Source: Spirochaetota bacterium (GTDB lineage Bacteria > Spirochaetota > UBA12135 > COTS27 > CBDBHE01). Taken from it: a DNA stretch of 64,000 nt. Positions 11,843-64,000 of this stretch are shown here, in pieces (the stretch's first letter is position 1; each line of letters opens with the position of its first letter). The position numbers were made by a program, and so were the translations under genes. The notes beneath the pieces are model-generated. The model was not told where the DNA came from. It worked only from the letters and a program-made list of their open reading frames with translations, and did no database searches. Where the stretch lies: the NCBI GenBank assembly GCA_965205605.1, contig CBDBHE010000007.1, forward strand, positions 256,001 to 320,000, in the 5' to 3' direction.

Positions 11843-11858
11843 TCAAACTAAAGCTAAG

Positions 11859-12173: not shown

Positions 12174-12300
12174 CTACATTCTCCTTAAAAAAAAATGAAT
12201 TTTATTATAACATAACACCAATCAGAATAAAATTTAAAAAATAGTCTATGATAATAAGTAAGATTTTAACCTATGAAATCCCTTTAAATAAAAAAAAATC

Positions 12301-12831: not shown

Positions 12832-12854
12832 GCTCTAAAATAAGCTCTAAAAAA

Positions 12855-46304: not shown

Positions 46305-46478
46305 CCCTGTTTTACCTCACCTGTAATAAAAATTTGATAGTTTGATTCGTTTTAACAATTTAACCCAAAATATTCTTATCCAAAATATTCTTATCCAAAA
46401 TATTCTTATCAATAGACTCGTATTATCGTATCAAAAAATAATAAAGACTAGGCTTTGCATCCCTTAGTTTATTTTAAA

Positions 46479-47375: not shown

Positions 47376-47516
47376 GCGTCTCTTGTTTCCTTCCTTTATA
47401 AAAAACTTAATATAAAAAACTTAATCAAAACGTTGTTACTTTATCATTATAGTACGAAAAAATAATAAAGACCAAACCGCTCAAAGCAGCTCCAAGGCGA
47501 TTGATTTTTACAGAGG

Positions 47517-48680
47517 TTAAAATCCTACCCGTTCCCCTTGTTCACTGAAGGTTAGCTCATCATTTTGTAGGTAAGTAGTCTCTCCTATCGTTTGAGTTGA
47601 GGCTAAAGTCCCAGCTTGTATCTGGCCACTTTTGTAAAAGTAAATTGGTTTGTCTGAGCCAAAAGATATCCTATGTACTCCTACTTGCAGGGTTTGGACT
47701 GAGCTTAAATACCCAACTTTAATCTCGCCACTTTCGTAAAAATCAAGAAAAAAAATGCCAAAAGAAAGGCTATTTTGCCCTAAGACAACGGTTTGAGGTG
47801 AAGCTAAAAATCCAGTTTTTAACGCCCCGCTTTCGTAAAAAGAAATTAAATGATTTGCGGCAAAACTTATCTGATTTGCCCCAGTGGAAATGCTTAAAGG
47901 CATGTCTAATGTCCCCCTTAATACCTTGCCACTTTCGTGAAAAGAAAGTTTATCAGAAAAAGTCACCGAGTTTCCCCCTAATTGAAATGTGTGGGCTCCG
48001 GCTAGATTTCCGCCTTCGATTTCGCCCCTTTGGGAAAAGTAAATGCTACCAGAAAAAGTTATCCTATTTCCCCCTAGTAATACCTCTTGAGAACGGTGTA
48101 AAACCCCTGTTTTTACCACGCCGTTGTTGTGAAAAGTCATCCAAGCACGACTAAAATCTAGTGAAAATTCTCCAATCATTATCGATTGAGATGAGACAGG
48201 TAGCTGTCCGCTTTTTACCGTCCCATTTTGGTAAAAATGAATCTCCCCTCGGTCAAATCTCACGTTGTTTCTCCCAACGATTAAAGTTTGCTCTGAGGCT
48301 AATCGTCCGCTTTTTATCGTCCCGTTTTCGTAAAAATTAATCTCCCCAAATCTAACGCTGTTTCTCCCAACGATTAAAGTTTGCTCTGAGGCTAATCGTC
48401 CGCTTTTTACCATCCCGTTTTCGTAAAAATCAATGACTTGGTCTGCAGCATACACTACCCCTCCAATTTCTCCATTCTCTTCTAAAATGCCACTGCGTAC
48501 ATTCCCATTCATATAAAAACTAACACTACCAGCTTTATAAGCTACTAAATAAGCTACTAAAGTTGCTTCCGTGATTTTCTCCTCCTCAAGTAGCTCCCCA
48601 CAAGAAATCAAAATAAGAAAAAAAATACCCCTAAAAAATAAAATTGTTTTTCTCACGGTTGTTTTGACCCCATCATCCAT
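47517..48680 (-). CDS. Beta-repeat lipoprotein 3 (likely GTG start at 48656)
   Basis: RKTILFF...LISC; about 10 F(Y/H)xxG..KSG.L repeats. Confidence 0.7.
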   Translation of the reverse strand: MDDGVKTTVRKTILFFRGIFFLILISCGELLEEEKITEATLVAYLVAYKAGSVSFYMNGNVRSGILEENGEIGGVVYAADQVIDFYENGMVKSGRLASEQTLIVGRNSVRFGEINFYENGTIKSGRLASEQTLIVGRNNVRFDRGEIHFYQNGTVKSGQLPVSSQSIMIGEFSLDFSRAWMTFHNNGVVKTGVLHRSQEVLLGGNRITFSGSIYFSQRGEIEGGNLAGAHTFQLGGNSVTFSDKLSFHESGKVLRGTLDMPLSISTGANQISFAANHLISFYESGALKTGFLASPQTVVLGQNSLSFGIFFLDFYESGEIKVGYLSSVQTLQVGVHRISFGSDKPIYFYKSGQIQAGTLASTQTIGETTYLQNDELTFSEQGERVGF

Positions 48681-48760: not shown

Positions 48761-49035
48761 ATCTAAAAAAAATATCAAGCAAAATAAGTCTCTGTTTATG
48801 ATTAGACGTCAAGCATATCAAAAAAAATTAAAATCTTGCTTAAAGAAGAAATGCCAAGCAAAAAGAGTCTTTGTTTAAAAAAAAAAACACATAAAAAAAA
48901 ACATAAAATAATAAAACAAAGAGTATTTCTATTTATGATTAGACGTCAAGCACATTTTTTTTTTATATTCTTGACACTCTTTTTTAAACAGAGATTTTCT
49001 TTGCTTTATTATTTCTTCTTTAATTAAGCACATAA
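48761..49035. repeat. Cluster of four copies of the phage-module dispersed element
   Basis: TTGAC-N10-AAACAGAGA-N5-TTTGCTT type copies, three on minus and one on plus. Confidence 0.75.
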
Positions 49036-49044
49036 AAAAAAAGT

Positions 49045-50046
49045 TTAACCCAGTCGAGTGCCAACCCAAGTGCGGAAAAACTTCCAATTGATAGGTCTTC
49101 TCAGGCAGATTTTTTTGTAAAACTCATACTGTTCTCCATCCATTGATTTTCTAAGGGCTTTTTGATAACGAGGAAGAAGAACTTCTAAAGCATCAAAAGT
49201 AGAAACCCCCAAACGACCATCATCAGCAAGCTTGTCTTTTAACAGCCCGTAAGAACAATGATTGATGGCTCGCTGAAGAAACTTAACGGCTTGTTTTTGA
49301 CCCACGTTAACAGCCGTATCAAAGAGCTCCATACGGACTTCAAAAGAAGAGATTTTGTGGCATTTAAGAGGAAGCCAAAAAGTGTTTTTATAAAAATCTT
49401 CAACGCTAGCTTGTAAAGAAAGGTGAGAGCTTAAGTTTTTAGGAAAAGCAGACTTGTTTTTTTTAAGCGTATCAATGGTCTTCCATCCAGACCATTTTGG
49501 GTGAAACTTACGAGAAACCCCTCGGTAAGTTTCACCCCCCCTATCATCTTTATCATGGACATAGCCGCCTTCATGATGGAGTGTTTTTTGTAAAATCGCT
49601 TGGAACGTTTGCTGCTCTCCTGTCGTTAAAATAAGTTGCTTTTCAATCCTTTCTTTGGCCTCAATTTGCTTGACAACCACCTTGCTTAACGACCGTTTTT
49701 CACTCATCTTCCCCAGCTCCCCAATGCCCAAAATAGACCCTAAAACAATCATAATCACCCCCTCCCCTATGCCTTCATAAATGGCTAAATATTCTTTTAA
49801 AATCCCTTGTAAAAAAGAAACCCTTCCCAAAAGAGGCGATAAAATTAAAATTAAAAAAAGACCCACAAAACAAAGAGCCGTTAACTGATACAAAAATGTT
49901 GAAAAATTAAGCTTCTTATGCTCGAGCTCCCCCATCAATCGACTGTGTTCTCTTTTTTCCCTCTCTTCCTTGTCCCCTGAAAAACCCGTTATTAAACTCT
50001 TGCTTTCTTTTAAAATATTCCCCACTCCACTTAAAAGATTGATCAT
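49045..50046 (-). CDS. GH108 endolysin with N-terminal holin-like membrane domain
   Basis: HEGGYVHDKDDRGGETYRGV, LFDTAVNVG, DGRLG, KFFRTW..R; two TM segments in the first 120 aa. Confidence 0.9.
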   Translation of the reverse strand: MINLLSGVGNILKESKSLITGFSGDKEEREKREHSRLMGELEHKKLNFSTFLYQLTALCFVGLFLILILSPLLGRVSFLQGILKEYLAIYEGIGEGVIMIVLGSILGIGELGKMSEKRSLSKVVVKQIEAKERIEKQLILTTGEQQTFQAILQKTLHHEGGYVHDKDDRGGETYRGVSRKFHPKWSGWKTIDTLKKNKSAFPKNLSSHLSLQASVEDFYKNTFWLPLKCHKISSFEVRMELFDTAVNVGQKQAVKFLQRAINHCSYGLLKDKLADDGRLGVSTFDALEVLLPRYQKALRKSMDGEQYEFYKKICLRRPINWKFFRTWVGTRLG

Positions 50047-50058
50047 TTTTTCTCTCCT

Positions 50059-50202
50059 TTATTTTTTTTTGATACTCTTAACGTTCTTTTTTATTTTTTT
50101 TTGAAACACTTCTTCTGGCATCAGCACCAAAGCCATCAGGGCCACAAAAATAATTAAAGAAGGGCTTAAGTAAACAATTTGTACCATTTCAATTTGGACC
50201 AT
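50059..50202 (-). CDS. 47-aa single-TM protein, holin/antiholin-like (unannotated)
   Basis: MVQIEMVQIVYLSPSLIIFVALMALVLMPEEVFQKKIKKNVKSIKKK; AAGGA upstream. Confidence 0.5.
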   Translation of the reverse strand: MVQIEMVQIVYLSPSLIIFVALMALVLMPEEVFQKKIKKNVKSIKKK

Positions 50203-50245
50203 TTTATTTTTCCTTTTTTATTTTTCCTTTTTTATTTTTCCTTTT

Positions 50246-50767
50246 TTATTTTTCCTTACAAGTTATCTTTTCTAAGTTGTCTTTTCTAAGTTGCCTTCTC
50301 TGAATTGTTTTTTTTCTTTTTTTAGAGCTACTTGGGGAGTTTTTGGGCTTAAGCTCAAAAGAGATTTTACTTTCTTTTAAACTCAGCAAAAAATGAAACC
50401 CTTCAAACAGCTTGATTGACAAAAAATGAAGTAAAAAACAAAAGGGAGCCATCAGTAAAAAATAAAAATCTCTCCCATCATCCCACGCCTTTTCACTCAT
50501 TTTAAAGGTAATAAACACATACGGGCACACCATCACTGAAAAAGCAACGACTTTACGATGAAGATCAACACTTTCAATGCTTTCAAACGAATCCCTAAAA
50601 ACCCACATCACCATAAATCGAAAGACTTCTGCCATGGCAATCGAAATCAAGATGACCCCTAAAATCATTGAGATGAGACTTTCTTGAGTTAAAAAAGAAA
50701 CGATGTTACAAAAAAACTTTAACAAGTTTTCTTGATTAGAAAATAAAACTTCAATGAACGCCTGCAA
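50246..50767 (-). CDS. Multi-TM membrane protein, putative holin
   Basis: About 3 TM segments, basic C-tail, between tail fibre and endolysin. Confidence 0.5.
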   Translation of the reverse strand: MQAFIEVLFSNQENLLKFFCNIVSFLTQESLISMILGVILISIAMAEVFRFMVMWVFRDSFESIESVDLHRKVVAFSVMVCPYVFITFKMSEKAWDDGRDFYFLLMAPFCFLLHFLSIKLFEGFHFLLSLKESKISFELKPKNSPSSSKKRKKTIQRRQLRKDNLEKITCKEK

Positions 50768-50881
50768 GTTTTTTTTCTTTTAGTTTTTTTTCTTTTAGTT
50801 TTTTTTCTTTTAAAAGGCTAGAAAGGATAAGAAAAGGTTTTTTTTTACCGATGGGTAAAATGGTCTGAGTGAAAGTGGTCA

Positions 50882-52432
50882 TTATCGATATTTAAAAAGG
50901 AAGAGGTCCCAAGTGTAAACTTTAAAAGTAAGTTTTAAGGTAATATCGTTATAGATCGTATTTCTAACGTGGCTTGAAAGCGAACGAACGCGATACTCTT
51001 TGCTGGCTAAATCAAAATAAAAAAAGCCTGCTGAAGCAATGTCATTGGAAAAAAAAATACTTTCACCTTGGAGGTCGGGAATATAACTTTGCGTCTTTGC
51101 AATGGCAGACTTTAAAACAAACTCAGACTTTAAAAGTCGGTTGTGGTCATTGCTTGCTCTGATAAGCGTGATGGGTGAGGAAGTGTTTAAATTAACATTC
51201 TTTAAAGTGTATTCAAAAAGAATGAAGTGCTTTGACGTACTGATGACATCCTGCTGGGCTGATGGGTCTGCAAGCACTGATTGAGAAGAAACAAGGACGT
51301 CATTAATCCGTAAACCGACACATTGATATAGCCCCATCGAGTTTCGAAGATAGTCTCCATTCGAATAATTAATGCGCATTTTAAGATGAGTATTAAGATA
51401 CGTGTACTTTCTACCTTCCGATAAGAGATTGCGATGGATACCTGCTCCGGTGTCATTTGTTTGGTAATCGATGTTGCAATCTTTAACGATAGCCCACTTG
51501 GCTCCAATGGCAACCTGACGCTCACTTGGAGTCACATACCAAGGGGCAATATGAAGATAAATGTTTTCAACGGTCACTTGTTTAAAATCGTAGCCGTCGA
51601 TGACCGTGGGGCCATAACCATGACCATGACGGTGGCCTTCAATTAAAAACTCCCCTTGGCTTTTTCCTTTGAGATGCAAGGTCCATTGGCTCAGATTTTG
51701 GCGTAATGCATCAGACAAAGGTAAAGTCTCACTCTGTGTGCTTAGTCGGTTCATCGTGCCCTCGTACTCTAGCATCAAGTTTCGATGCCCTAAAGCATGC
51801 AATCGGTCAAAATAACCACCACGGACAAAACCCTCAAAAGCTTCTTGAAGGGTAAAATGCCATCCTGCCAGACTAATCACTCCCCACTGGCGACAGTCAT
51901 AAAAAAGAATGTCGTGCCCTATGACTTTTTTAAACAAGTAAAGCGGTCTCTTGTTTTGCCCAATATGAGGGTATTCAAAATTACTTATTTCTTGCCTTAG
52001 CACGCTTATTTCCCCTGATGTATCACAGAGGACGACTTGATATTCGTCTTCTAAGACTAAATCTGTAAACGCGATATCACGGGTGACTTGGATAGGCTTG
52101 CCTTGAATAAGGACTTCCCCTTTTTGGATGGTAAAACTAATCGTCTCTTCACTAGGATAGTAAATATCAATCACTTCCATCCCCTTGATAACGGCATTGT
52201 CTCTTCCTAAAGCCGCTCCCCCAGCATCTAGCCTTTCTTTTATCGTGTCGTACCCTCCCCTAGCACTTTGGACTTCTGCGTCACTCAGTGGGCTGCCTTC
52301 TATCTCTCTCACTCGGTGCTCAAGGTCATTGTGAGCCTCCTTAATCCCTTCAAAGTTTTCATTTAACACATGCGAGCTGGCAAAAGCCTTTCTTTTAATC
52401 TCATACAAATCATTGGCATTAATTTGACTCAT
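50882..52432 (-). CDS. Tail fibre / receptor-binding protein
   Basis: LNENF, EVQSARGGYDTIKERLDA motif typical of tail-fibre/baseplate N-termini; beta-rich C-terminus. Confidence 0.7.
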   Translation of the reverse strand: MSQINANDLYEIKRKAFASSHVLNENFEGIKEAHNDLEHRVREIEGSPLSDAEVQSARGGYDTIKERLDAGGAALGRDNAVIKGMEVIDIYYPSEETISFTIQKGEVLIQGKPIQVTRDIAFTDLVLEDEYQVVLCDTSGEISVLRQEISNFEYPHIGQNKRPLYLFKKVIGHDILFYDCRQWGVISLAGWHFTLQEAFEGFVRGGYFDRLHALGHRNLMLEYEGTMNRLSTQSETLPLSDALRQNLSQWTLHLKGKSQGEFLIEGHRHGHGYGPTVIDGYDFKQVTVENIYLHIAPWYVTPSERQVAIGAKWAIVKDCNIDYQTNDTGAGIHRNLLSEGRKYTYLNTHLKMRINYSNGDYLRNSMGLYQCVGLRINDVLVSSQSVLADPSAQQDVISTSKHFILFEYTLKNVNLNTSSPITLIRASNDHNRLLKSEFVLKSAIAKTQSYIPDLQGESIFFSNDIASAGFFYFDLASKEYRVRSLSSHVRNTIYNDITLKLTFKVYTWDLFLFKYR

Positions 52433-52555
52433 TTTTTTTTTCTCCTTCCTTTCTTCCTTCCTTAATTAATTAATTAATTATTTTTATTTTTATTATTTTT
52501 ATTATTTTTATTTTCAGATAAGTTTATTTTTATTATTTTTTTAAAAAAAAAAGCT

Positions 52556-54286
52556 TTACAAGTAGGGCGGAAAAGCGGGCGGCTTGCCTACAATCGCTTT
52601 AGTGGCTTGAAGGGCCAGTAAAGAAGGAAGTTCAAAATTGTCTTTTGTCAAAACCCCAATATCTCCCTTTTCGTCCGTATAAAAGTCATAAGCAAATCCA
52701 ATATCATACTCTCGTGCTTCATCATAGCGACTGGCTGTAAAGGCTTTAAAAGTATTAAGACCCAAAATGGTCTTGTTTAAGGCTCCGCTTGCAAACCGAT
52801 GAGAAACTTCGTTTACTTCAAAAATATAAAACAAGTCAATCGTCTTAACAAAAATAAACACTTTACTGCCAAGGGAAAAAAAAGGATACCCATTCCAAAG
52901 GACGAGTTTTTTAATTTGAGACAAGGTTTTGCTTTCATTGACGAGGAGTTTTTTAGCCAAGAAAAAACAAGCCACTTGATTTTGAAATAAAATGTTTTTA
53001 ACATCCAAGCTTTTAGAATAACCTTCTTCAAAAAATTGACTCATATTAAACACGCTAGCCGAAATCGTTTTGTCTGCTTTGTCCCCTTGAGCTCTCATCA
53101 AGTCTCTGCCTCTAATTCGACTTATGACCCCTGGTTTCAAACGTTCAAAGAAAAAATACCTGACTTTGTTTCCCGCTTCATTTAAAGCCGTGAGCGGAAA
53201 ATTAACTTTAAAGCTTCCCCGGCTGATAGTAGGAAAAAACTCTCCCGAGCCTAAATCTAGCTCAAAATAATCATTTTTTTCACCTGCTCTACTGGCAAAC
53301 CTAATGTTTTTTAAGGTTTTTTCTGGTCCAAAATCACTCCCTCGTTTTGAAACATTGACGATTTTAAAACCTCTTTCATCATTTTGTTGAAACTGACTAA
53401 GGCTTTCGATTTCACCTTCATCTAAATTAAGGACCTCAAGGTTTTCATTTGGATTTCGAACCACTAAAACCTCCCCAATCTCTTTTTTAACCACCGAAAT
53501 AAGCTCCAAATCAATCACGGACTTGGCGTATTCAAAGCACTTGTTCAAAGCTTCCAAGCAAGACATTCTTTCAATGTCTTCTAAATCAACCTCCCAGGGC
53601 CATTCTCCCCTCCCCCTTGAGTTTAATTGTTTAACCCTTTCATCCACTTTTTCCTTAGACAAAATCGCCAAATCTGCCCCCACAGACGTATCAAAAAGAA
53701 AGCCCGTGAGATGACTAAGACCCGCACTTTCTAAAATACTTTCTACTCCCCTTGTAAAAGACCATCCATTATCAAAAATAAAGGGAAGCTCATTATCGGC
53801 CAGCCGTCCAAAAATATCTCGAGCTTTGAGGTTGATTCGAGCTGATTTTTTTAAGGTCACTTCACTGATTTCTGCCTGGTCAATGCTAAAAAGATAATGC
53901 TTGTAATAAACCATTCGTCCCCTCAGCCGGCTACCGATATTCACCAAAAGCTTGTCCCCTACTTTAAAATTAAACAACCCATCATCTCCAATAGAATACT
54001 TGCCATCACTCACACTAGAAAGCGTCAAATCCAAAGTCGTGGCATTGCGAATAAAACGCAATTTACCCCTTCTGTTTTTTCCATTGGATTCACTAATTTT
54101 CAAACTTTCCACGTCGTTTAAAACCTCAAAAGTCTCCCCTCCAAAAACAAGCCCCCCCCCTTCGACTTGCTTGGAAACTTTCGCATCAAGAAGGTATTGG
54201 TCACTATTTTGCAAGAGATTTTTTATCTCAAAATCTTGTTCAAAATCAAGATCAATTAAGCTATCTGTTGAAAAAAAATCCATCAA
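52556..54286 (-). CDS. Tail tip / baseplate hub-like protein
   Basis: Position after Dit-like gene; I.LKARD..GRL, V.EVSHRF. Confidence 0.55.
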   Translation of the reverse strand: MMDFFSTDSLIDLDFEQDFEIKNLLQNSDQYLLDAKVSKQVEGGGLVFGGETFEVLNDVESLKISESNGKNRRGKLRFIRNATTLDLTLSSVSDGKYSIGDDGLFNFKVGDKLLVNIGSRLRGRMVYYKHYLFSIDQAEISEVTLKKSARINLKARDIFGRLADNELPFIFDNGWSFTRGVESILESAGLSHLTGFLFDTSVGADLAILSKEKVDERVKQLNSRGRGEWPWEVDLEDIERMSCLEALNKCFEYAKSVIDLELISVVKKEIGEVLVVRNPNENLEVLNLDEGEIESLSQFQQNDERGFKIVNVSKRGSDFGPEKTLKNIRFASRAGEKNDYFELDLGSGEFFPTISRGSFKVNFPLTALNEAGNKVRYFFFERLKPGVISRIRGRDLMRAQGDKADKTISASVFNMSQFFEEGYSKSLDVKNILFQNQVACFFLAKKLLVNESKTLSQIKKLVLWNGYPFFSLGSKVFIFVKTIDLFYIFEVNEVSHRFASGALNKTILGLNTFKAFTASRYDEAREYDIGFAYDFYTDEKGDIGVLTKDNFELPSLLALQATKAIVGKPPAFPPYL

Positions 54287-54292
54287 TTCCTC

Positions 54293-54691
54293 TTATAAAA
54301 GCTCCGTTGAACTCATTTCAATCTCAAGCACATGACAAACTTCAGATCTCTTTTCACCAGAAAAAGTAGGGGATAAAAACTGTTCTTCTTCTCCTACATA
54401 AGAAAGCATGACTGACAATTCATTTCTCTTAGGCCGTACAAATGATTTTAAAGGGTCCCCCTCCTCAAGCACAATGGCAATATGACGAGAGCTTTGCAAG
54501 TACGTCTGAAAAGCCTTTATTTGCCCATACACCATCAAAGCCAACAATTTTACTTCCAGTCGCCACCCTTTAATCTGCTTTTTAAGCGAACCACTGAGCG
54601 TTTGAGTCCTTGACGACACTTCTTTAAAATAAATCCTCGGTTCATTATCAATGATTTCAAACAATTCTTCGTTTTCATTTTTAAAAATCAT
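54293..54691 (-). CDS. Distal tail (Dit)-like protein
   Basis: Position after TMP; RTQTLSG.L..QIKG. Confidence 0.45.
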   Translation of the reverse strand: MIFKNENEELFEIIDNEPRIYFKEVSSRTQTLSGSLKKQIKGWRLEVKLLALMVYGQIKAFQTYLQSSRHIAIVLEEGDPLKSFVRPKRNELSVMLSYVGEEEQFLSPTFSGEKRSEVCHVLEIEMSSTELL

Positions 54692-54726
54692 TTCTTCTTA
54701 TCCTTTTTTTAAAGCCCTTTTTTTCA

Positions 54727-55761
54727 TTAAACCGTTTGTCCACTAAGACGCTGGATTTCATTTTGAGTTTCAATAAGGTCGACCGTATCAAAGTAAAAAT
54801 GATTTTCAGTTTGATAATGTTGAGTTTGTTGGTTTTCAGTTTGATGCCGAGAAGAAGAAGGACTGAAACCTAAGGCGAGTTTTTCAAGAATGCTCGTGGG
54901 AATGACCGCAGAAGGAGAAGCAGGAGTAACAAGCTCTGCCCTAGAAAAATCACCGGGAATATCCCCAACAATAGCACTCTTGCCAGCAGCAATCAATCCT
55001 CCTGAAAATAAAGAAGGGGCTTTTTGCCCAAGAATAGCACTCGTTTGGGCCGCTCCCGTCGCCAAAACCGTCGCCGCATTAATCAAGTTTAAAGGAAAAA
55101 TACTCGTTACAAGCGCTTTGGTCGCCGCCAAAGCCGCATTAATGATCGCAAGGCCTACCGATAAGTTTTGATTAAAAAAAAAGCCATCCCTCGCTCGCCT
55201 ATTTTCTGCTTTTTCCAATTTCTTTTGAGTTTCCCCTCGAGCAATTTTCGCTTTCTCCACATCATCTTCTCTCTTTTGACGCCTCGCTGCAATCGCTTCT
55301 TCAGCAAGAACTTTTTCGTCTTCAAGCTCAACCTTCCTTAAAGCTTCCTCTTCATCCAAAATCGCTCTGTCTAAAAACGCCCGTTCAAAAACATCCGCTT
55401 CACTTTTTTTCTCCGCTCGTAACAACTCAAGCCTCTCTTCAATCCGATTTCTCTCAGCTTCTTTTTTTAAAGATTGCTCTTCTTCCCCTTTTCTTTTTCG
55501 CTTTTCTCTTTCTTTCTCATTAAACTCATTAAGCGCCCTCACCGCCGCCTTCACCACCTTACCTTCGGCTTCCAAGTTTTTTCTTAAAGCCTTGATGTCC
55601 CCAAATCCTTTATCAAAATTAGTCTTAAAAAATCGATTTAATTCCCCAAAAATCCCCCCTTCCCTAAACTTAAAAACTTCCTCAGTCGACTTAAGACCCT
55701 CTCTAAAAAGATTTAAAGCCCCCTCAACTTCATTAATTCTCTTAGCCGTATTATCCATCAA
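54727..55761 (-). CDS. Short tape measure protein
   Basis: Coiled coil, Ala-rich hydrophobic segment, FSGG...AIVGD...AELVTP TMP-type C-terminal motif. Confidence 0.75.
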   Translation of the reverse strand: MMDNTAKRINEVEGALNLFREGLKSTEEVFKFREGGIFGELNRFFKTNFDKGFGDIKALRKNLEAEGKVVKAAVRALNEFNEKEREKRKRKGEEEQSLKKEAERNRIEERLELLRAEKKSEADVFERAFLDRAILDEEEALRKVELEDEKVLAEEAIAARRQKREDDVEKAKIARGETQKKLEKAENRRARDGFFFNQNLSVGLAIINAALAATKALVTSIFPLNLINAATVLATGAAQTSAILGQKAPSLFSGGLIAAGKSAIVGDIPGDFSRAELVTPASPSAVIPTSILEKLALGFSPSSSRHQTENQQTQHYQTENHFYFDTVDLIETQNEIQRLSGQTV

Positions 55762-55976
55762 ATTAACCCTTCCCTTCCTTTTTTTTAAACCAGCCTTGTT
55801 GCTTCTTTTCTAAATCATTCATCTCTTCGGTCATCTGATTCTCTTTGATTTTCTTTTCATGAAGATTCTTTTTTTATTCTTTTTTTATTCTTTTGTTATT
55901 TCTGTTGCTTTATTTTATAAAAATCTTTTCTCTCAAGATGATTTTTTTTGAGATTTTTTGAGGATTTCAGCATGGT

Positions 55977-56558
55977 TTATTTGAAGGCGGATTTTTTCTT
56001 TTTCAAGCTCGCGAGCAGCCTGAATCTCAAGAAACGTTTTTGCTCCAGGGTCATCCCCTTCACACCACCCCCAAAATCCATCCTCTCGCCCTCGCCCTCG
56101 CCCTCGCCCTGACTCTGGTAAGGTGAAAGATGACGAATCGAGTCCACAAAAAAAAAAAGTCTCGTCTGATAAAGTAAGATTTTTTTAAATAAATCAAAAA
56201 AACTTTCCACGTTTTCAAACCCCCACTTAAAAAAAGCCCCCTTAAGACCCCTCTCAGCAAAAAAACCTCCCTTCTTTCGAAACGAATACACCAAGTCTAA
56301 CGCCGATAAATATAACCCCTTCTTCGTTAATAAACTCTCCTCAGCAAAGTTCCTCTCCCTAAAAAAAGTCAGTAAACGATCCTTATGCTCAAAAAGTAAA
56401 AAAACATCCAAAGCACTTTTAAGATGAAAACAAACACAGCGTCCCTTTCCTATCTCAACATAAAAAGGTTCGTTCCTCTTCAGCTCAAGAAACTTTAGCG
56501 GTTCATACTCCCAAACAAACTTAGTACCCTTTATCGAACGTTTAAATAAACCCTTCAA
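55977..56558 (-). CDS. Tail assembly chaperone (gpG-like), with -1 frame product ending at 55933
   Basis: Between tail tube and TMP; T11 slippery run and open -1 frame. Confidence 0.55.
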   Translation of the reverse strand: MKGLFKRSIKGTKFVWEYEPLKFLELKRNEPFYVEIGKGRCVCFHLKSALDVFLLFEHKDRLLTFFRERNFAEESLLTKKGLYLSALDLVYSFRKKGGFFAERGLKGAFFKWGFENVESFFDLFKKILLYQTRLFFFVDSIRHLSPYQSQGEGEGEGERMDFGGGVKGMTLEQKRFLRFRLLASLKKKKSAFK

Positions 56559-56696
56559 TTCCTTCTCTCCTTCTCTCCTTCTTTTTCAAATCCTTTTCAC
56601 CCTCAGCGATTTATTCTCTTAAATCTCCCTTAAAATCTCCCTTAAAATCTCTTAAGCTTCTTTAACTTTTTTTAAGTTTCTCTTAAACGACTTCGA

Positions 56697-56752
56697 TAAG
56701 TTTCTCTTAATAAGTTTCTCTTAATAAGTTTCTCTTAATAAGTTTCTCTTAA
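56697..56752. repeat. Four copies of TAAGTTTCTCTTAA
   Basis: Direct reading; overlaps the tail tube stop codon. Confidence 0.95.
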
Positions 56753-57627
56753 ACGGCTTCGACTTTTTTCATTCGAAAGCAATCCACTTGAGAGTTTTCT
56801 CTTAAAAGGTCGCTTTCTACTTTCCCACTCAGCGACAACGTTTTAAACTCTTGTCCCCCTACAATCCCCGTTGAAGAGGGATACAGCCGGATTTTAAAAA
56901 CTTCAAATAGCACTAGCTCTCCTTTTTGATTGCGACTGACCGCCTGCAGGCAACTATGGCGATGATTAAATGACCCTGAGCCAATGTGCGTTTCCCCATA
57001 CCCATTCTCATCTAGCCCACTCTTTTTACCCCCAAACACACCGGTGAACATCTCTAAACTAGAAACATTATTTAATGTCAAGCTAAGCGTCGCATCATTT
57101 CGAACCACCCCCGTACTTATCACTCTTTGAGGCACCGTGTCCGTCAGTAACTCCGCTTGAGTCGACTCAAACGTTAGCTCCCTCTCCCCTACGTCCCCAA
57201 CAAAACGACCTAAATCTTTATGAATATTCGTTTCACTGTACTCCCTCGCATCGCCTCCCGCATACACCCTAATCTCTAGTCTTTCCCCATCCGTTAAACT
57301 TACCCTCCTCTTGTCATCAGCAATTAACACATTCTCCGTGCTATCAAAAATAACCTTCCCTTCTACTTTGTCAATCGCCTTAATCTTCGCTCTCCCTAGC
57401 TCCCCTCTCTCCCCCTTAAAATACAAATTGAAAAACCCTCCCGAAACAAAGTCATCCCATTCTTCCCTCTCTCTATCAAGCTCCAACCTTACCTTCGCCT
57501 CCCTCTCATCACTAAGCTCTAACACACTCCCCCTCTCCTCATACAACACAAACGACCCATAAAAATCATGGCTGCTAAGCATCAAGTCTTCACTCAATTT
57601 TTGATCTCTCTCATTACGATAAAACAT
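56749..57627 (-). CDS. Major tail tube-like protein
   Basis: Position; beta-rich C-half (LTFE, ATLSLTL, FEVFK, TLSLSGKV..D); strong RBS. Confidence 0.55.
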   Translation of the reverse strand: MFYRNERDQKLSEDLMLSSHDFYGSFVLYEERGSVLELSDEREAKVRLELDREREEWDDFVSGGFFNLYFKGERGELGRAKIKAIDKVEGKVIFDSTENVLIADDKRRVSLTDGERLEIRVYAGGDAREYSETNIHKDLGRFVGDVGERELTFESTQAELLTDTVPQRVISTGVVRNDATLSLTLNNVSSLEMFTGVFGGKKSGLDENGYGETHIGSGSFNHRHSCLQAVSRNQKGELVLFEVFKIRLYPSSTGIVGGQEFKTLSLSGKVESDLLRENSQVDCFRMKKVEAV

Positions 57628-57639
57628 CTTCTGTTCTCC

Positions 57640-57733
57640 TTTTTCTTCTTTCTTCTTTCTTCTTTCTTCTTTCTTCTTTCTTCTTTCTTCTTTCTTCTTT
57701 CTTCTTTCTTCTTTCTTCTTTCTTCTTTCTTCT
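57640..57733. repeat. (TTCTTTC)n microsatellite upstream of the tail tube RBS
   Basis: About 13 tandem 7-mers. Confidence 0.9.
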
Positions 57734-57775
57734 TGATTTTTTTACAAAAAAAAAATCCCTGCTTTCTTTTAAAGA

Positions 57776-58105
57776 CTAAAAACGACTCCCTTCTTCTGTC
57801 AAATAATCCAAGCTAAAAAAAATCTTCGCCTCCTCTCTTTTAAACATCACTTTCTCAAAAATAAACGCTTTTTTAATCTTCTTAATCGCAATGTCAATTT
57901 TAAGAAAAAATGACCCCTCTCCTTTAAAATCTCCCGTAAAATTAAAAATAAAATAAGCCCGATTGACCCGCTTCACTCCCTTTTCCCCACTCACTCGATC
58001 AAAAACTAACTCCCCGTTTCCCTCAATCCCTTGCTCCTGTAAAAAACCTCTCACCTCTGTATACAGCCCAAGTAAGTTTTCACCCTTAATCACCCTTTCT
58101 ATCAT
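57776..58105 (-). CDS. Putative neck / tail terminator protein
   Basis: Size and position only. Confidence 0.4.
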   Translation of the reverse strand: MIERVIKGENLLGLYTEVRGFLQEQGIEGNGELVFDRVSGEKGVKRVNRAYFIFNFTGDFKGEGSFFLKIDIAIKKIKKAFIFEKVMFKREEAKIFFSLDYLTEEGSRF

Positions 58106-58108
58106 TCC

Positions 58109-58139
<31 letters not shown>

Positions 58140-58157
58140 AATTTTTTTTTTATCTTT

Positions 58158-59081
58158 TTATCTCATTAAAGACACCCCTTTTTTCTCCCCTCTCCCTTCT
58201 TTCACAAACAAAGCTCTCTTTGAAAAATAATGAAGGTATTTCTTCTCATACTCATCCCCTCGTCTTTCATCATCCCCCTCAAAAAAAGACCCTAAGGCCA
58301 GTTTGTAGTAATTGGCAAAAAATCGAAAAATAATGCATTGGTTAATAAATCTTTCTTGATACTTCATCTCTCCTTTCTCGTTTCGAAATCCTTCTCCCTT
58401 TGACTTGAAAAAATCCCCAAGCTCCCTCGCAGCCTCATCCAAGCCGCCTCTAAGTCGTAAGCATAAATTAAACCCATTGCCTCCCTTCGCTATCAGCTTC
58501 TCATCACTTAAAATAAGCTTGCCCTCTTCTTTCACAAATCCCTTCACAAACACCTCTCTTACTTCTCCACTCCCTTCCTCTTCTACCTCACCACTCGCTC
58601 CTATCACTTCCTCTCTCCTCAGCTTCTTAAACCTCTCATCAACTACAAACCCTTCCCCACTAGCCCTAAGCCGCCCCGAAAGATAAAAAAAATTATTAAA
58701 AAAAAAACCCCTATGTCCCTTCCTTAACTCATGCTCATAAATCCGATACGTCATCTTTTCCCCCACCCCACAATAAAAAAACCTCAGTAAAACTTCTCTC
58801 TCCTCTCCCACAGTTTCCCCCTCCCCCATCACCGCCACAGATAAACCAGAAAATACTTCTAAAATAACCTTCTCTCCTACCTTAAATCCTTCCGTCTTCA
58901 CCTCAAGGTTGACCTCCCCTTCTATCGGCTTTACTCCATTCCATTCTTGCTCATTATTAAACCCTTCATTAAACCCTTCATTAAACCCTTCACTCCTCCT
59001 CAACAAACGACAATCAATCGCCTCATCCCCAGGAACATAAAAATGAACCCTGTCTTCACTCCCAACTAAAATCTCTCTCAC
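58158..59081 (-). CDS. Putative head-tail adaptor protein
   Basis: Directly after capsid; helical C-terminal part resembling adaptors. Confidence 0.4.
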   Translation of the reverse strand: MREILVGSEDRVHFYVPGDEAIDCRLLRRSEGFNEGFNEGFNNEQEWNGVKPIEGEVNLEVKTEGFKVGEKVILEVFSGLSVAVMGEGETVGEEREVLLRFFYCGVGEKMTYRIYEHELRKGHRGFFFNNFFYLSGRLRASGEGFVVDERFKKLRREEVIGASGEVEEEGSGEVREVFVKGFVKEEGKLILSDEKLIAKGGNGFNLCLRLRGGLDEAARELGDFFKSKGEGFRNEKGEMKYQERFINQCIIFRFFANYYKLALGSFFEGDDERRGDEYEKKYLHYFSKRALFVKEGRGEKKGVSLMR

Positions 59082-59223
59082 TTAACTTCCTCTCTCTTAA
59101 AACTTCCTCTCTCTTAAAACTTCCTCTCTCTCTTAAAACTTCCTCTTATTTGATGGCTTTTAGAACATAAAAAAATTAAAGACTTGCTTAAAAAAAAATG
59201 CCAAGCAAAAAAAGTCTGTGTTT

Positions 59224-59273
59224 AAAAAAAAAAAAAAATCAGGGGGGAAAGTCGCCTCGCCCCCTCTGGGATT
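59224..59273 (-). terminator. Intrinsic terminator after the capsid gene
   Basis: Minus strand AGGGGGCGAG-GCGA-CTTTCCCCCCT hairpin followed by a long T-run. Confidence 0.7.
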
Positions 59274-59321
59274 TGTCTCTGAGTTTAGGGATACTTTAAG
59301 ATGATTTAGGAATGCTATCGT

Positions 59322-60332
59322 TTAGTTGGTCACTAAAAGAGACATCTTGATATTTTTCCTCTCGCCCACTCGCTCCCAGTTGTCAGCACTACTAAGGTCA
59401 CTGTCAGCTGGATTCTTTTGCGTACCGGTGTATTTAAACCCGTTGGGGTGTAAGCCAAACTCTCTTCTAGAATAAAAAATCTCTTCCCCAGCCCCTTGAT
59501 TGTTTTCAGGCTTGCGGTCAATCTCTATCTCTCTTGTCGTCACTGAAGCGTTTTGTCCAAACAACAACGCCCCTTCTCCCACTAAAAGAGTCACGTATTT
59601 CTTCTTCTTCGGAGACCCGTAACTGATAACAGGCATCTCGTCAGTCACAAAAACATTCAGCCCTTGATAGCGAGTGACCACCATTTCGTTCTTCGACGGA
59701 GACGTGTAATCAATCTGATCTAACGCACTGAGCTCTTTGGCTTTATCACTATGGAGAATGATCGAACTTAAACAACTAATCTCCCCTTTCAGCTTGTACG
59801 CTCCTTCAGTAATATTACTCGCACTCAACCGATTGCTAGAACCTATTGTCGAAAGCGCCACATTATCAGCTACCGTCGATTCATAAAAAAGATCTCCCTC
59901 TTCACTCGAGTTTGCTTTCGCATACAAGTAAATCCCTTCGATGATTTTAGAAATAATCCGCTCATATTCCCCTTGCCAGTAATGACTCAGCTGACTTAAA
60001 ATATGCTCCACAGGGTCCGCTTTAGAAATACTCATTAAATAATTATTCCAATCCCAACTTTTAACTCGTAAAAGCTTGGCCGCTACATTCTCCCCTTGAC
60101 TCAAACTCGAAGAATTAAGAGCCACCGTAGAACCATTCGCCGGCATCGATGAACCACTTAATCCCTTGAAAAATGGAAAATGAATGCTTTCATTCCCCAC
60201 CACCCTATCAGCCAAAGGCTGAAAATAACTCACCGCTTGCGAACTAACAAACGGCCAAGTTTTATATATAAGCTCGCTTAACGTATGGGCAAACTCACTG
60301 CTTTTAACAATATCTGTTGTGCTTTGGGACAC
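59322..60332 (-). CDS. Major capsid protein, SPP1 gp13-like (HK97 fold)
   Basis: ADPV..I..Q...YW, IILHS, YQG..VFVTDEMP, GEGAL.FG, RREFGLHPNGF, L..ADNWERV. Confidence 0.93.
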   Translation of the reverse strand: MSQSTTDIVKSSEFAHTLSELIYKTWPFVSSQAVSYFQPLADRVVGNESIHFPFFKGLSGSSMPANGSTVALNSSSLSQGENVAAKLLRVKSWDWNNYLMSISKADPVEHILSQLSHYWQGEYERIISKIIEGIYLYAKANSSEEGDLFYESTVADNVALSTIGSSNRLSASNITEGAYKLKGEISCLSSIILHSDKAKELSALDQIDYTSPSKNEMVVTRYQGLNVFVTDEMPVISYGSPKKKKYVTLLVGEGALLFGQNASVTTREIEIDRKPENNQGAGEEIFYSRREFGLHPNGFKYTGTQKNPADSDLSSADNWERVGERKNIKMSLLVTN

Positions 60333-60802
60333 TTCTTTTCTCCTAATTATTAATATTAATAATAATAATGGTAATTCTTTAAAGCTCTCTCTCCAAGACC
60401 CTCTCTAAAGGGGCATCCACCCGACTCCAATAATAGTCCCCTTTTCTCTTCCTTCCCCTACCTCCTAACTTCATAAATCTTATAAATCTTATAAATCTTA
60501 TAAAACTTATAAAACTTACAACAAGTTTTACTTCAAGCAAGTGAAAAAATGATGAAAAGTTCCCCTTTATCCTAAACCCAAAATCGACTTTGTCAACTTT
60601 TTTTTTTATATCCTTAATTACAGAAGAAATGTCAAGCAAACAAACCCTCTGTTTAAAAAAAAAATGTTAAAAACAGGAAAAAAATATCCTTGACATTTAA
60701 CGACAAACAAAGATTATCTTTGCTTTTTTATTTTTTGTAAAATAAAGTTCTTAAATAAAGCTTTTCTCTCGACTCACAAAGGCAGTTCTTAAGCAAAGCC
60801 TT

Positions 60803-61582
60803 TTACCCATTCCTTTTCATCAATCTCTCAAAAGCCAACTGCACCGGTTTCAAGCTCCCCCACTCTTCCCCTCGACTGCCATCAAGCAATGGTAATCCTT
60901 CCTTCCTTTCGTTTCTCCCTTCGCTTCTTCCTCCCTTCCTAAGACCCATCTTCTCTAAAACCTCCACTTGCTTGCCAAGCGAAAGTGACCCTTCAAGACC
61001 CTTAAAAAACTCCCTCTCTTCCTCTCTAAGCCCTTTTAACAATCGAGCCTTCCCTCCTAAAAAAACCTCTTCACTTTCTTTCTCACTCTCTCTTAGCCCC
61101 CTCACTTCCTCTTTTAATGCCCCCACTTGCTCCTCCAACAACTTCCTCTCTTCCTTCCCCTCTCTCACCCCTTCCTCTAATCGCTCCTTCTCTTCCTCTA
61201 CCTCATTAAGCGCTTCTTTTAATTTCTGATTCTTTTGTTTCACTTTGTTCCTAGACCGATACGCCAAACTTAACGCCTCTTTACATCCTTCTTCTTTACA
61301 TCCTTCTTCTTTACATCCTTCTTCTTTACATCCTTCCTCTTTACATCCTTCTTCTTTACATCCTTCCTCTTTACAATCCCCCTCAGACAAACCTAAAAAC
61401 CCTAAATCTTCCCTTCCTAAGACCACTTCCCCCTTCTTCTTCTTCTTCTTCTTCTTCTTCTTCTCCCCACCTGCCCCTTTCAATTCTTCTTCTTCTTCAC
61501 TTTCTTCTTCTAATTCTTCTTCCACTTCCATTTCCTCTTCCTCTTCTTTTTCTACTTCTTTTTCTAGTTCTTTTACTGGCAT
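60803..61582 (-). CDS. Scaffolding protein with low-complexity expansions
   Basis: Acidic N-terminus, coiled coil, position between portal and capsid. Confidence 0.65.
   Translation of the reverse strand: MPVKELEKEVEKEEEEEMEVEEELEEESEEEEELKGAGGEKKKKKKKKKKGEVVLGREDLGFLGLSEGDCKEEGCKEEGCKEEGCKEEGCKEEGCKEEGCKEALSLAYRSRNKVKQKNQKLKEALNEVEEEKERLEEGVREGKEERKLLEEQVGALKEEVRGLRESEKESEEVFLGGKARLLKGLREEEREFFKGLEGSLSLGKQVEVLEKMGLRKGGRSEGRNERKEGLPLLDGSRGEEWGSLKPVQLAFERLMKRNG
61278..61375. repeat. About 6.5 copies of a 15-bp unit encoding GCKEE
   Basis: TCTTTACATCCTTCY tandem array inside the scaffold gene. Confidence 0.95.
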
Positions 61583-61700
61583 TGTTTTGACTCCTTCTTT
61601 AATTTTTTTATTTTCTTCTTTTCATATCCTTGACATTTAATCATAAATATAAATACTCTTCCCTTCTTTATTCCTTCTTTAAGCAAGTCTTTATTTTTTT

Positions 61701-63158
61701 TTAACTTAAAATGTTTCGCTTCACTTGCTCGTTTTCTTCTTGATTCCTAAGCAGCCTTTCTTTAATCATCCCACGACCTACCCCTGGATTCTCTCGACCC
61801 ACAAGGTCCACAATCGAAAGCCGATTTTGCTCCAGCAGCATCCCTTCATGAGCATCTTGCTCTCTTTGAGTCAAAAAGCTTTTTAATTCCCCCCACTGAG
61901 TCGTCATCTTAAAAGGTGAAAGCTTTCGCCCCAGTCCCGCTTCTTTAGCAACCGACCCCACTAGCGCCATCAGTGAAAAAAGCTTCTTCTCACTTGACTT
62001 GTATAATGGCACCACTTTCTGCCTAATCTCATCCAACGCAAATCGCTGCAACATCATCGCTTCAGCACTTTGTCTCACTCCTCTACCTCCACTCCCTTCA
62101 CTCCCCAGTATCGCCCCTCCATTATCCGCAATCCGCCTCCTAAGCGTGTTTAGAACCTCCACATATCGACTGAGCTCTTCGGTAAACGTGTACCCATGAA
62201 CCCCAATGCGGCCGTTTTCTCCTCCTCCTCTCGCCACCAACACACTCAAAGCATCTGTCGAAAATTGCCTCAGTTTTTCCTCAATGTCCTCACTTAAGTC
62301 CCCCGTTAAAATCATCTGCCGATACCCTCCCAATCTTAATAACGAATTTAAATGAGTCAAATGAACATTCATCTGTAACGTCCCTTCATACAACTCTTCA
62401 TTAAACCCTCTCTCCCAAAAACTCATCCCCTTCTGCACCCTAAAGGCAACATACGGTATCTCATACCTCTTCAAATCTCCTTCATACCACTTATACGGGT
62501 TTTCTATCGACACCTTCGCTTTCGCTCTCTTAAAGTCAAGTCTCACCCCTTCCTCCAAATTATACACCCGATACTGTCCCACTCCCTCTCGATCAAGACT
62601 GCTCTTCCCATTCGTCCACACAAACACTTTCCGCCCTCCAACCCCTTTAACCCCTCCTTTTAAGCCCACTTCATTCACTAAAAGATTCATCTCAAAAGGA
62701 TTCTCCTCGCTCTCCTCCACCTCAACAGCGTACGAAGGCACCGGAATTAACTCCATCTTCCCCCTCACCACTCCAATCCGAATAAACCCTACCCCAGTAA
62801 TATTCGCATACTGGTCTACCACACTTAACCCATGCTCCACTTCCCCTTCACTCACCATCTCCTTGAATATCCCTTCGTCCCCTTCCATTTTGAAAAAAAA
62901 CTCCCTCACAGGTGACTTCGTGTACAAAACCGTCTTTAAATCAATCATCTTCCTAAATAAATTGTCCCACGATACAATCATCGGTCCCAGTTTCTCATAA
63001 TTCTCTCTCGAAAATTGCCCCCTCACTAACCCTTCCACTTCTCCCTTAAACACTCCCCAGTACATCTCAAACTTCTTTAAATCCCTCTCTCGCCTCATCG
63101 ACCAACTTCTTAACCATCTCTCTTCCTCTCTCTTCTTCTCATTTAATAAAAACTTCAT
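61701..63158 (-). CDS. Portal protein (SPP1 gp6-like)
   Basis: 485 aa; NLFRKMID, G.GFI, ENPY...IPYV.F, SAEAM; follows terminase. Confidence 0.8.
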   Translation of the reverse strand: MKFLLNEKKREEERWLRSWSMRRERDLKKFEMYWGVFKGEVEGLVRGQFSRENYEKLGPMIVSWDNLFRKMIDLKTVLYTKSPVREFFFKMEGDEGIFKEMVSEGEVEHGLSVVDQYANITGVGFIRIGVVRGKMELIPVPSYAVEVEESEENPFEMNLLVNEVGLKGGVKGVGGRKVFVWTNGKSSLDREGVGQYRVYNLEEGVRLDFKRAKAKVSIENPYKWYEGDLKRYEIPYVAFRVQKGMSFWERGFNEELYEGTLQMNVHLTHLNSLLRLGGYRQMILTGDLSEDIEEKLRQFSTDALSVLVARGGGENGRIGVHGYTFTEELSRYVEVLNTLRRRIADNGGAILGSEGSGGRGVRQSAEAMMLQRFALDEIRQKVVPLYKSSEKKLFSLMALVGSVAKEAGLGRKLSPFKMTTQWGELKSFLTQREQDAHEGMLLEQNRLSIVDLVGRENPGVGRGMIKERLLRNQEENEQVKRNILS

Positions 63159-63374
63159 CTTCTCTTCTTCTCCTTCTTTAATTTTTTTTCTCTTTTTATG
63201 TTTTTTTTATGTTTTTTTTTAATTTTTTACTCTTTTATGATATACTTGTTCCGATCATATATATTACTGCTTGCTTGGTTATTTCTTCTTTTTTGCTTTT
63301 ATAAAGAGGGAATAGCCAAGCATTTTGTTTTCTTAATTAAAAAATTAAAATAAATCTCTCTTTATCATTAAACT

Positions 63375-64000
63375 TCAAGTCACACATGTCATCGGTTTCT
63401 TCTTCCCAAAATAAACCGCCAAAAAGTAATACAACGCACTGCCCAAATGCGAATGCCCATCATGAACCGGCCGATCGCTCCCATCCGTTTTCCACCCACG
63501 TAGCATCCTCGCACTCAAAGGGCATTGTTTTTCACACACCCTAAGAACAGGTGAATATTCCCTCGCCAAAGATAAGTAATCAATCAATGGCTTCTTAACC
63601 GTTTGAATCTTAATCTCAGGTTCTAGTACCCCCGTCCAACTTAAAGGCCTCTTCGAATACACCGCCCCACTCCTCGCTCGCCCCGCCGGGTCAGCCGCAT
63701 GTCCCCTAAAACAATACCCCTTCCTAAGAACCATCTCTTTACAAAATCCTGCCGTCTTTCCCCTCCCTTGCCACTCGTCAATCAACCGAACTTCAACATT
63801 AAATAAATCCTCCCTATCTCTCACCCCTTCCTCTCTCTTCACCACTTGTAAAAATAAAATAGCCGTGGGATCGTCTACCCCAAAATCCCAACTCGTCCAA
63901 ACTTCCCCCTCTTCCTCTTCTAATAAAAAAGCCTCCCTCACAAACGTCTCTTCACTCACTTCATACACCCTCCTCTCCTCACTATCTTCCCATTCACCCA
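63375..64000 (-). CDS. terL: Terminase large subunit, C-terminal nuclease domain (5' end outside window)
   Basis: Frame open to the edge (GEWEDSEERRVYE), SWDFGVDDPTA, ADPAG, PVHD.HSH. Confidence 0.9.
   Translation of the reverse strand, partial: GEWEDSEERRVYEVSEETFVREAFLLEEEEGEVWTSWDFGVDDPTAILFLQVVKREEGVRDREDLFNVEVRLIDEWQGRGKTAGFCKEMVLRKGYCFRGHAADPAGRARSGAVYSKRPLSWTGVLEPEIKIQTVKKPLIDYLSLAREYSPVLRVCEKQCPLSARMLRGWKTDGSDRPVHDGHSHLGSALYYFLAVYFGKKKPMTCVT

Follow-up and report, generated by a model that had tools for sequence, protein, structure and literature searches.

The intergenic spacers of a prophage-like region in the stretch of spirochaete DNA analyzed here hold many copies of a short repeated element. 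The stretch (the window) is 64,000 nucleotides (nt) of contig CBDBHE010000007.1, positions C7:256001-320000, and the region runs from near its right-hand end into the following DNA. The repeats are best explained, if tentatively, as cis-acting transcription-control cassettes belonging to the prophage itself, of a promoter/operator type and closest to the promoter-early stem-loops (PeSLs) of T4-type phages, a reading that stops a little short of being probable. It is suggested by the letters of the copies, which are confined to the prophage, keep a fixed distance between two promoter-like hexamers, and hold particular core positions invariant. Below, bare positions are those of the window, C7 marks contig positions, and L001 marks positions in the stretch C7:318001-338000.

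Copy number and confinement to one prophage

An earlier note on the window had listed about ten copies, a count that was real but too low. The starting profile was built from the eight obvious copies, aligned without gaps, and was used for an nhmmer search of the whole genome (1.69 Mb in 8 contigs, 30% G+C). All 19 matches with E ≤ 0.11 fell within C7:304768-326226, the best match elsewhere had an E value of 0.3, and a second profile round gave the same picture. Profiles of Box A and of Box B plus tail, two parts of the element searched separately, were each confined to the same 21.5 kb. With a 13-copy profile run over 26.5 kb round the prophage, 20 matches at E < 0.01 and one at 0.027 were obtained, making 21 copies that span C7:304761-326222. 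Eight of them fall inside the window; the other 13 (L001 3482-8222) are past its end and were missed earlier because the prophage continues there. Statistical support was found for eight of the ten copies first listed (window matches at E 2e-15 to 2e-9, plus 0.0014 and 0.0062); of the other two, 60612-60670 is supported by repeat finding (nhmmer E ~3) and 63245-63292 was seen by eye only.

Of the 19 prophage spacers that measure at least 50 nt, 12 contain copies. None of the 21 lies inside a gene, and none is present in the seven spacers of the tail module. The densest cluster, with four matches in L001 6667-6853, is found just 3' of the replication genes. A degenerate 25-nt pattern allowed up to three mismatches has 12 matches in the genome, all in the prophage, and its reversed control has 0. 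Restriction to phage modules, proposed in the earlier note from the window, is thus upheld genome-wide by the profile and pattern scans. With both strands counted, the phage spacers (4,720 nt) have 11 occurrences of CTTGAC, and 584 host upstream regions (150 nt each, 87.6 kb) have 8. Because the motif is enriched in the phage spacers relative to ordinary host upstream DNA, the element is not a generic host promoter, which was the worry attached to its first description. The longer form CTTG[AG]C[AG]T[TC]T is found 24 times in the genome, with 11 occurrences in the prophage, seven as Box A and four in tails.

The host is an uncultured spirochaete isolated at the family level. Across 400 other genomes of the phylum, the 25-nt pattern gave at most two matches in any genome, the level of the reversed-pattern control. 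In three public collections (viral, genome, and metagenome contigs) no multi-copy set was found; the 9 + 15 pattern matches there are single and limited to the pattern itself, and two that were inspected look like chance. Searches of viral, genome, and metagenome contigs with the capsid, terminase, and portal proteins and with two DNA patterns likewise yielded no related locus. The host genome has no sampled relative inside its family; the capsid protein was compared with 60 related genomes and matched in none of them, and the phage collection gave only distant relatives with less than 30% identity. The only close capsid relative is a protein (P0002) that is 86% identical and encoded on a 64-kb contig. 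In the source sample there is also a second variant of the capsid and portal genes (C7:315466-316334 and 318152-319159), about 85% identical and at about 3x depth, which is consistent with the 86%-identical P0002. At 80% identity, no alignment was obtained for the part of the second-variant record that would span the spacer preceding the capsid gene.

Anatomy of the element and constraint on its core

A full copy consists, in order, of a weak ATRT, Box A (CTTGACR), 16 bp of the form TTTAAYSAYAAAYAKA that include AAAYAKARA, the hexamer RATWNW, the string TYTTYGCTT, and a variable tail. The 15 copies that have Box A align without gaps over positions 7-44. The nearly fixed spacing and the two orientations that the earlier note described are both borne out, with no insertion or deletion over these positions. 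C at position 7, T at 8 and 9, and A at 11, 24, 25, 27, and 31 are found in 15/15 copies, C at 12 in 14/15, and G at 10 in 11/15. Within the second hexamer, A2 (equivalent to -11) is present in all 15 copies and T6 (equivalent to -7) in 9.

Changes are not spread evenly over the core. Fourteen copies compared over 39 core columns show 119 departures from the consensus, which leave 10 columns invariant (1.23 expected; C7, T8, T9, A11, A24, A25, A27, A31, T37, and T43) and 17 columns with at most one change (6.1 expected if changes were even), and 0 of 20,000 simulations reached either figure, in a test biased by the recovery of the copies through a profile made from the copies themselves and by their common ancestry. 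Because two C positions are invariant or nearly so in a genome with 30% G+C, selection would appear to act on particular positions, and the pattern argues for a position-specific constraint on the core.

The tail opens with CTTGRCATTT, which repeats Box A in diverged form some 34 bp further on, so the unit is itself a 1.5-fold repeat. At least three tail versions are found, and about half form weak A/U-rich hairpins (-3 to -7 kcal/mol), often followed by a T-run. The stems differ in sequence yet still pair, as in GCTTGG/..AAGC, GCTTTATT/AATAAAGC, and CTTGGTTA/TAACTAAG. Two subfamilies, marked by AACGAYAAACARA and AATCATAAATATAAATACTC, are intermingled across 20 kb, with mosaic copies that mix both signatures. 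The copies at C7:316683, 324767, and 326223 are 82-87% alike, and those at 317623 and 325448 are 89% alike. Several copies lack Box A, and some are truncated or tandemly duplicated. Two likenesses had been picked out by eye at the outset. The match of the 61630 copy to 48905-48952 is sound (49 nt, 80%), and calling the 48822 and 59169 copies near-identical over 65 bp was generous, the figures being 65% without gaps over 82 nt and about 87% by eye with a 1-nt loop deletion.

A miniature inverted-repeat transposable element or other small mobile element was considered and rejected: an 80-nt alignment shows no pairing of the ends, the ends are ragged and modular, and there is no copy outside the prophage. 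Separately, a 12-bp unit, GATTTAAGGCTT, reported by Tandem Repeats Finder, is repeated 7.6 times at L001 8004-8094 just after a gene for a 129-amino-acid (aa) protein (L001 7620-8009). This array holds the GCTTGA motif of Box A on the strand opposite to the neighboring element copies.

An independent sigma-70 scan picks the same hexamers that the alignment brings together, scoring 10/12 at 60690 and 61630 and 9/12 at 48949, L001 6848, and L001 6726. In the promoter/operator reading, the core of a full copy would be a sigma-70-type promoter, with CTTGACR, exactly 16 bp, and RATWNW with its invariant A2. A phage or host DNA-binding protein would also read the site, which would make it a promoter with a built-in operator. 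The operator is postulated because the TTTAAYSAYAAAYAKA spacer and TYTTYGCTT are conserved far beyond the needs of RNA polymerase. The tail half-repeat may serve as a weak terminator in some places, and the copies without Box A that follow the capsid and endolysin genes sit where terminators would be expected. The copies have undergone duplication, truncation, and recombination between spacers, and for that reason some have probably decayed. Their shared absolute orientation would be expected if direct repeats are tolerated and inverted repeats, which invert genes, are selected against. Promoters and operators had both been suggested in the earlier note. The anatomy fits the promoter half (CTTGACR-16-RATWNW and the two 10/12 copies), conservation exceeds the needs of a promoter (10 invariant columns where 1.2 would be expected), and the operator half stays putative.

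Promoter likeness, orientation, and competing readings

Several results, in addition to the bias in the conservation test, weigh against a promoter/operator function. Promoter-like matches of 9/12 are common by chance, with 39 in the window stretch versus 25.8 ± 4.4 in shuffles and 11 in L001 versus 11.3. Upstream of host genes, as placed by crude gene calls, TTGACA is found 22 times in sense and 21 times in antisense, and TTGACA with the spaced A...T is found 8 versus 7 times, with no sense bias. Since the scores are common by chance and host use of TTGACA is not demonstrated by this crude look, the promoter-like label rests on conservation and fixed spacing and not on score. The orientation of the copies is also awkward: in the late block, where genes are on the minus strand, 7 copies run with the genes and 4 against, and in the early/replication block, where genes are on the plus strand, 1 runs with the genes and 9 against. 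The most promoter-like pair of copies runs into the scaffold gene and the portal gene from the 3' side. Pfam and PHROGs revealed no repressor among the 7 open reading frames (ORFs) of the rightward block and a 94-aa ORF. The only recognizable DNA-binding protein is a 107-aa HTH_17 protein; the same searches also gave a DnaD-like initiator, and a feature search on two small ORFs produced no usable regulator lead. As for the tails, alifold gave no consensus structure for 19 copies (0.0 on both strands), and no element tail passes an intrinsic terminator scan that needs 3 G-C pairs. The inverted repeat TTGCTT...AAGCAA reported earlier is real in some copies only.

Overall, 8 of the 21 copies agree with gene direction, and 16 of 21 lie on the absolute minus (late-gene) strand. 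The copies are therefore neither simple sense promoters nor stoperators of the L5 type, and the late promoters offered in the earlier note do not survive in their simple form, least of all in the early block. All five intergenic spacers of that block contain at least one copy, with the tail abutting the stop of the upstream gene and the head away from the downstream gene. A truncated copy at L001 4264-4289, which has only Box A and the spacer, is the 1 in 21 that directly precedes a start codon; it is in sense, 46 nt before the first start codon of the rightward block, and is followed by TAAAAA and a Shine-Dalgarno sequence. This arrangement leaves three options: action at the DNA level regardless of direction, antisense or convergent promoters, or a by-product of spread as direct repeats. 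A more elaborate version of the second option, which is improbable, holds that the copies are a minus-strand promoter class acting as a switch for the whole prophage, with the terminase, portal, and downstream genes driven in sense and early genes silenced in antisense. The copies would then fire against each early/replication gene, converging on its 3' end, and antisense transcription and polymerase collision would shut these genes off one by one while the late genes turn on.

Ordinary sense promoters of a different kind are also found in the prophage. One stands before the initiator gene (A-run, GTTGACC-16-TACAAT, L001 4689-4736, 10/12). Another ordinary-looking promoter, TTGACA-16-TAGGAT, scores 10/12 at 60596-60569 on the minus strand, after the 60612-60670 copy, and faces the capsid gene. 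The initiator-gene and capsid-gene promoters (the latter at 60569-60606(-) in full) are similar to one another, with an A-run, GTTGACM, 16 bp, and TACAAT or TAGGAT, and each adjoins an element copy. On the reverse strand of the element no promoter was found, the best by eye being 7/12 and the scan reporting nothing consistent. Sigma-54, sigma-28, T4 late TATAAATA, Mot box, IHF, and LexA-like palindrome motifs, compared by eye, were rejected for wrong spacing or lack of conservation. Elsewhere in the genome, at C7:728912-729090, a 66-bp unit is repeated three times in tandem, each with TTGACT and an extended -10-like box TGTTATAAT; this may be a triple host promoter.

The conserved stretch of about 39 bp, which takes in the spacer as well as an invariant C next to the -35 hexamer, would also suit sites that bind a protein and have no promoter activity. 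These could be dispersed operators of the P1 C1 or L5 type or the iterons of a replication initiator, with the likeness to TTGACA either incidental or the result of sites evolving to overlap promoters. Such pure binding sites are unlikely, though the likeliest of the rivals. In their favor, function appears independent of gene orientation, GCTTGR recurs about 34 bp downstream in the copy and again in the 12-bp x 7.6 array at L001 8004-8094, and the densest cluster lies just downstream of the replication genes. For one operator, however, about 39 bp is long, and Pfam and PHROGs brought up no repressor gene, only the DnaD-like initiator and HTH_17. The 12-bp array may be mere slippage, because nearly every prophage spacer has a tandem repeat of its own. 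To our knowledge, there is no case of iterons at 12 separate spacers, which counts against the iteron form of the idea.

Phage P1 offers the precedent for dispersed operators, its C1 operators being 22 dispersed, asymmetric, phage-specific sites of 17 bp (PMC8546580). The element differs from them in site length and sequence, and nothing comparable to the C1 repressor was recognized in this prophage. Some P1 C1 operators occur as inverted pairs, and the P1 repressor is a protein of 283 aa. The operators and stoperators of Cluster A mycobacteriophages (L5 gp71) are more than 20 asymmetric intergenic sites of a temperate phage that are absent from the host, some of them overlapping promoters (PMC9283540). 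In L5 a monomeric repressor binds 13-mers that are oriented by the direction of transcription (PMC9283540), whereas the element is at least 39 bp long, keeps to an absolute strand irrespective of transcription, and has no repressor that was found. This difference in orientation also counts against binding sites of the L5 type.

PeSLs are the closest of the systems compared (Arbiol et al. 2010, PMC2839356; Comeau et al. 2014, PMC4122927). They are short composite cassettes with a near-consensus sigma-70 promoter and a stem-loop that recur between the genes of a single phage genome, with degraded "half" copies, positions flanking single genes or small groups of genes, and lineage-specific sequence (PMC4122927), all features with a likeness here. 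They differ in that the PeSL stem-loop is just upstream of the promoter, whereas the hairpin here is downstream of the core. PeSLs also end in a Shine-Dalgarno sequence and start codon and run with the genes, where only 1 of the 21 copies does so and 9 of the 10 early copies are antisense. Finally, PeSLs lie mainly in hyperplastic, nonstructural regions, and the element is also found between head genes. The early and middle promoter families of T4 are likewise conserved over spacer and flanks, and the GCTT box superficially resembles the TGCTT Mot box (PMC4122927). No MotA- or AsiA-like gene was found, the GCTT box is not at the Mot distance from the -10-like hexamer, and orientation is inconsistent. 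The element resembles these families and is a member of none; most likely it is a phage-control repeat of a known sort in an unusual form.

Families of phage-specific control sites such as PeSLs, L5 stoperators, and P1 operators have each revealed how transcription, immunity, or module shuffling is organized. The element would add a candidate regulon of 21 sites with defined invariant positions, ready for testing. The sharing of an absolute strand regardless of gene direction is a geometry seen in none of the known families. If the sites are active, they offer a handle on a cognate regulator and on expression tools for low-G+C spirochaetes. If they are inert, they provide a clear case of repeat proliferation in a decaying prophage.

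The inert case supposes (nearly) functionless repeat DNA, an ex-regulatory segment that spread by slippage, unequal crossing-over, and gene conversion and whose main effect is homology for cassette exchange in a probably defective prophage. This is an unlikely explanation, one kept alive because the prophage is the region richest in tandem repeats, at 6.65% versus 1.25% genome-wide, and lies in the top four of all 24-kb windows. It is also suited by spacers longer than is usual in a late operon, by copies that are truncated, tandemly duplicated, or mosaic, by the lack of any integrase in or beside the prophage, and by the 16 of 21 copies on one strand, as expected of direct-repeat spread. Inert DNA would not, however, be expected to show a strongly position-specific constraint with invariant C positions under A+T pressure. 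Nor does local spread fit easily with subfamilies interspersed over 20 kb, or with copies that avoid genes and the seven tail-module spacers, even though those spacers are equally repeat-prone.

The tails raise a further reading, which is very improbable, in which the copies are small-RNA genes or elements acting as RNA, such as a short transcript, a pyrimidine-loop hairpin with a T-run, or a signal for mRNA processing or stability. In roughly half of the copies a hairpin and T-run stand no more than about 10 nt after the promoter-like core, and the stems vary and still pair. Yet conservation is lowest in the stretch that such a transcript would cover, alifold found no shared structure on either strand, and Rfam gave no match at E ≤ 1 over 30.4 kb. 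The host genome has no CRISPR array for a repeat-like RNA to mimic.

Least probable of all, and very improbable, is a role as packaging sites or as targets for a dedicated site-specific recombinase or invertase, both of which the earlier note had entertained. The copies do stand in both orientations, several of them paired head-to-head or tail-to-tail. Against this, no tyrosine or serine recombinase, integrase, or resolvase is found in or next to the prophage; the tyrosine recombinase genes of the genome are confined to contig C6, and its only resolvase fragment is at C7:183 kb, 120 kb off. Three runs were compared as assembled contigs, with low-depth and fragmented cover in which rare events may be missed, and the contigs of the two that contain the region gave no credible sign of an inversion joint. 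The one sizeable joint, from 10265 to 15331, is a cross-match: 38 of its letters correspond to the cluster of copies at C7:304.9 kb, which the reference did not cover. All other joints have sides of less than 50 letters and fall at repeats, which makes them uninformative on inversions. A dedicated recombination system is thus unlikely. Packaging sites in 12 separate spacers are implausible and have no known precedent.

Copies in the window and the prophage that carries them

Four copies lie between the MORN-repeat gene at 47517-48680(-) and the endolysin gene. A full copy with Box A CTTGACG and Box B is located at 48761-48818 on the minus strand (nhmmer E 1.8e-13); it aims at the MORN-repeat gene and has a perfect TATAAT just downstream on the same strand. 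The copy at 48840-48877 (minus; nhmmer E 0.0014, Box B profile E 4e-6) has Box B and tail, with a T-run in the place of Box A. Just after the endolysin gene, its hairpin TTGCTTGG...TTAAGCAAG followed by a T-run is terminator-like (-6.8 kcal/mol, z -2.8). A full copy at 48900-48955 (minus; nhmmer E 4.7e-14; TTGACG-16-AATACT, 9/12) is head-to-head with the next, at 48965-49029 (plus; nhmmer E 5.5e-10), which is also full and is aimed into the 3' end of the endolysin gene.

The remaining copies in the window are spread among the head genes. At 59194-59224 (minus; nhmmer E 0.0062; fold -5.4 kcal/mol, z -2.4), a Box B plus tail copy directly follows a G+C-rich hairpin with a T15 run (~59225-59270, by eye) that is 3' of the capsid gene. 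The weak Box B plus tail copy at 60612-60670 (minus) was recovered by repeat finding at 72% over 82 nt and 89% over 27 nt, and its tail holds CTTGACATTT, a second Box A. The best-scoring full copy, at 60684-60747 (plus; nhmmer E 2.4e-15; TTGACA-16-GATTAT, 10/12), runs into the 3' end of the scaffold gene at 60803-61582(-). In the portal/scaffold spacer, the full copy at 61624-61687 (plus; nhmmer E 6.2e-12; TTGACA-16-AATACT, 10/12) runs into the portal gene at 61701-63158(-), with its head 41 nt from the scaffold start codon. A possible degenerate copy at 63245-63292 (plus) was reported by no program. The degenerate full copy at 63320-63379 (minus; TTGAAG; nhmmer E 2.3e-9) overlaps the stop of the terminase large-subunit gene and aims at the portal gene.

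The prophage-like region covers about 24 kb, from 49045 past the window end to about L001 10858. It is flanked on both sides by host genes (his genes, TsaD, FolB, and a dehydrogenase; M20 peptidase and Hsp90). Its late block, annotated with Pfam and PHROGs, is on the minus strand and takes up 49045-63999 in the window. It includes the endolysin gene at 49045-50046 (domains GH108 and PG_binding_3), a tape-measure-like gene at 54727-55761 with a short product of 344 aa, and the gene for the major head (capsid) protein at 59322-60332 (PHROG 247, E 7e-55). The acidic repeat protein encoded at 60803-61582 is a putative scaffold and the 485-aa product of 61701-63158 a putative portal, both by position and size and with no family match. 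The gene for the terminase large subunit runs from 63375 beyond the window end, and the first gene of the minus-strand block is the 94-aa, cysteine-rich ORF, a zinc-ribbon protein (L001 3765-4049). The rightward early/replication block, on the plus strand, starts at L001 4315 with a small membrane protein, followed by genes that include the DnaD-like replication initiator (L001 4793-5662, E 4e-29), four small ORFs, one of which is the 107-aa HTH_17 protein (L001 7033-7356), and an 864-aa secreted protein. With no integrase, resolvase, or recognizable repressor, and with a short tape-measure-like gene, the prophage may be defective or domesticated.

Repeats of other kinds are plentiful in and around the region. 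Just before the following gene, nearly every late-gene spacer carries a short tandem repeat of its own (3-13 copies, period 7-21 bp), and many of these are purine-rich or Shine-Dalgarno-like on the sense strand. They are found at 50190-50273, 50763-50815, 52476-52513, 55839-55900, 57629-57740, 58110-58160, 59075-59146, 60467-60518, and L001 3233-3450. Low-complexity tandem insertions are also found within phage genes: (CKEEG)x7 plus long runs of E/K in the scaffold-like protein (60803-61582), and an insert of G/N/T hexamer repeats in the terminase large subunit (L001 1375-3138). Between the host genes and the endolysin gene, at 45363-48680, are three paralogs that encode MORN-like repeat proteins; their N-termini resemble one another, they have internal repeats of 93-99 bp, and element copies aim at the nearest one. 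On the other side, an 813-aa ORF adjoining the prophage (L001 12229-14340, C7:330229 onward) contains a 141-bp unit repeated about 15 times.

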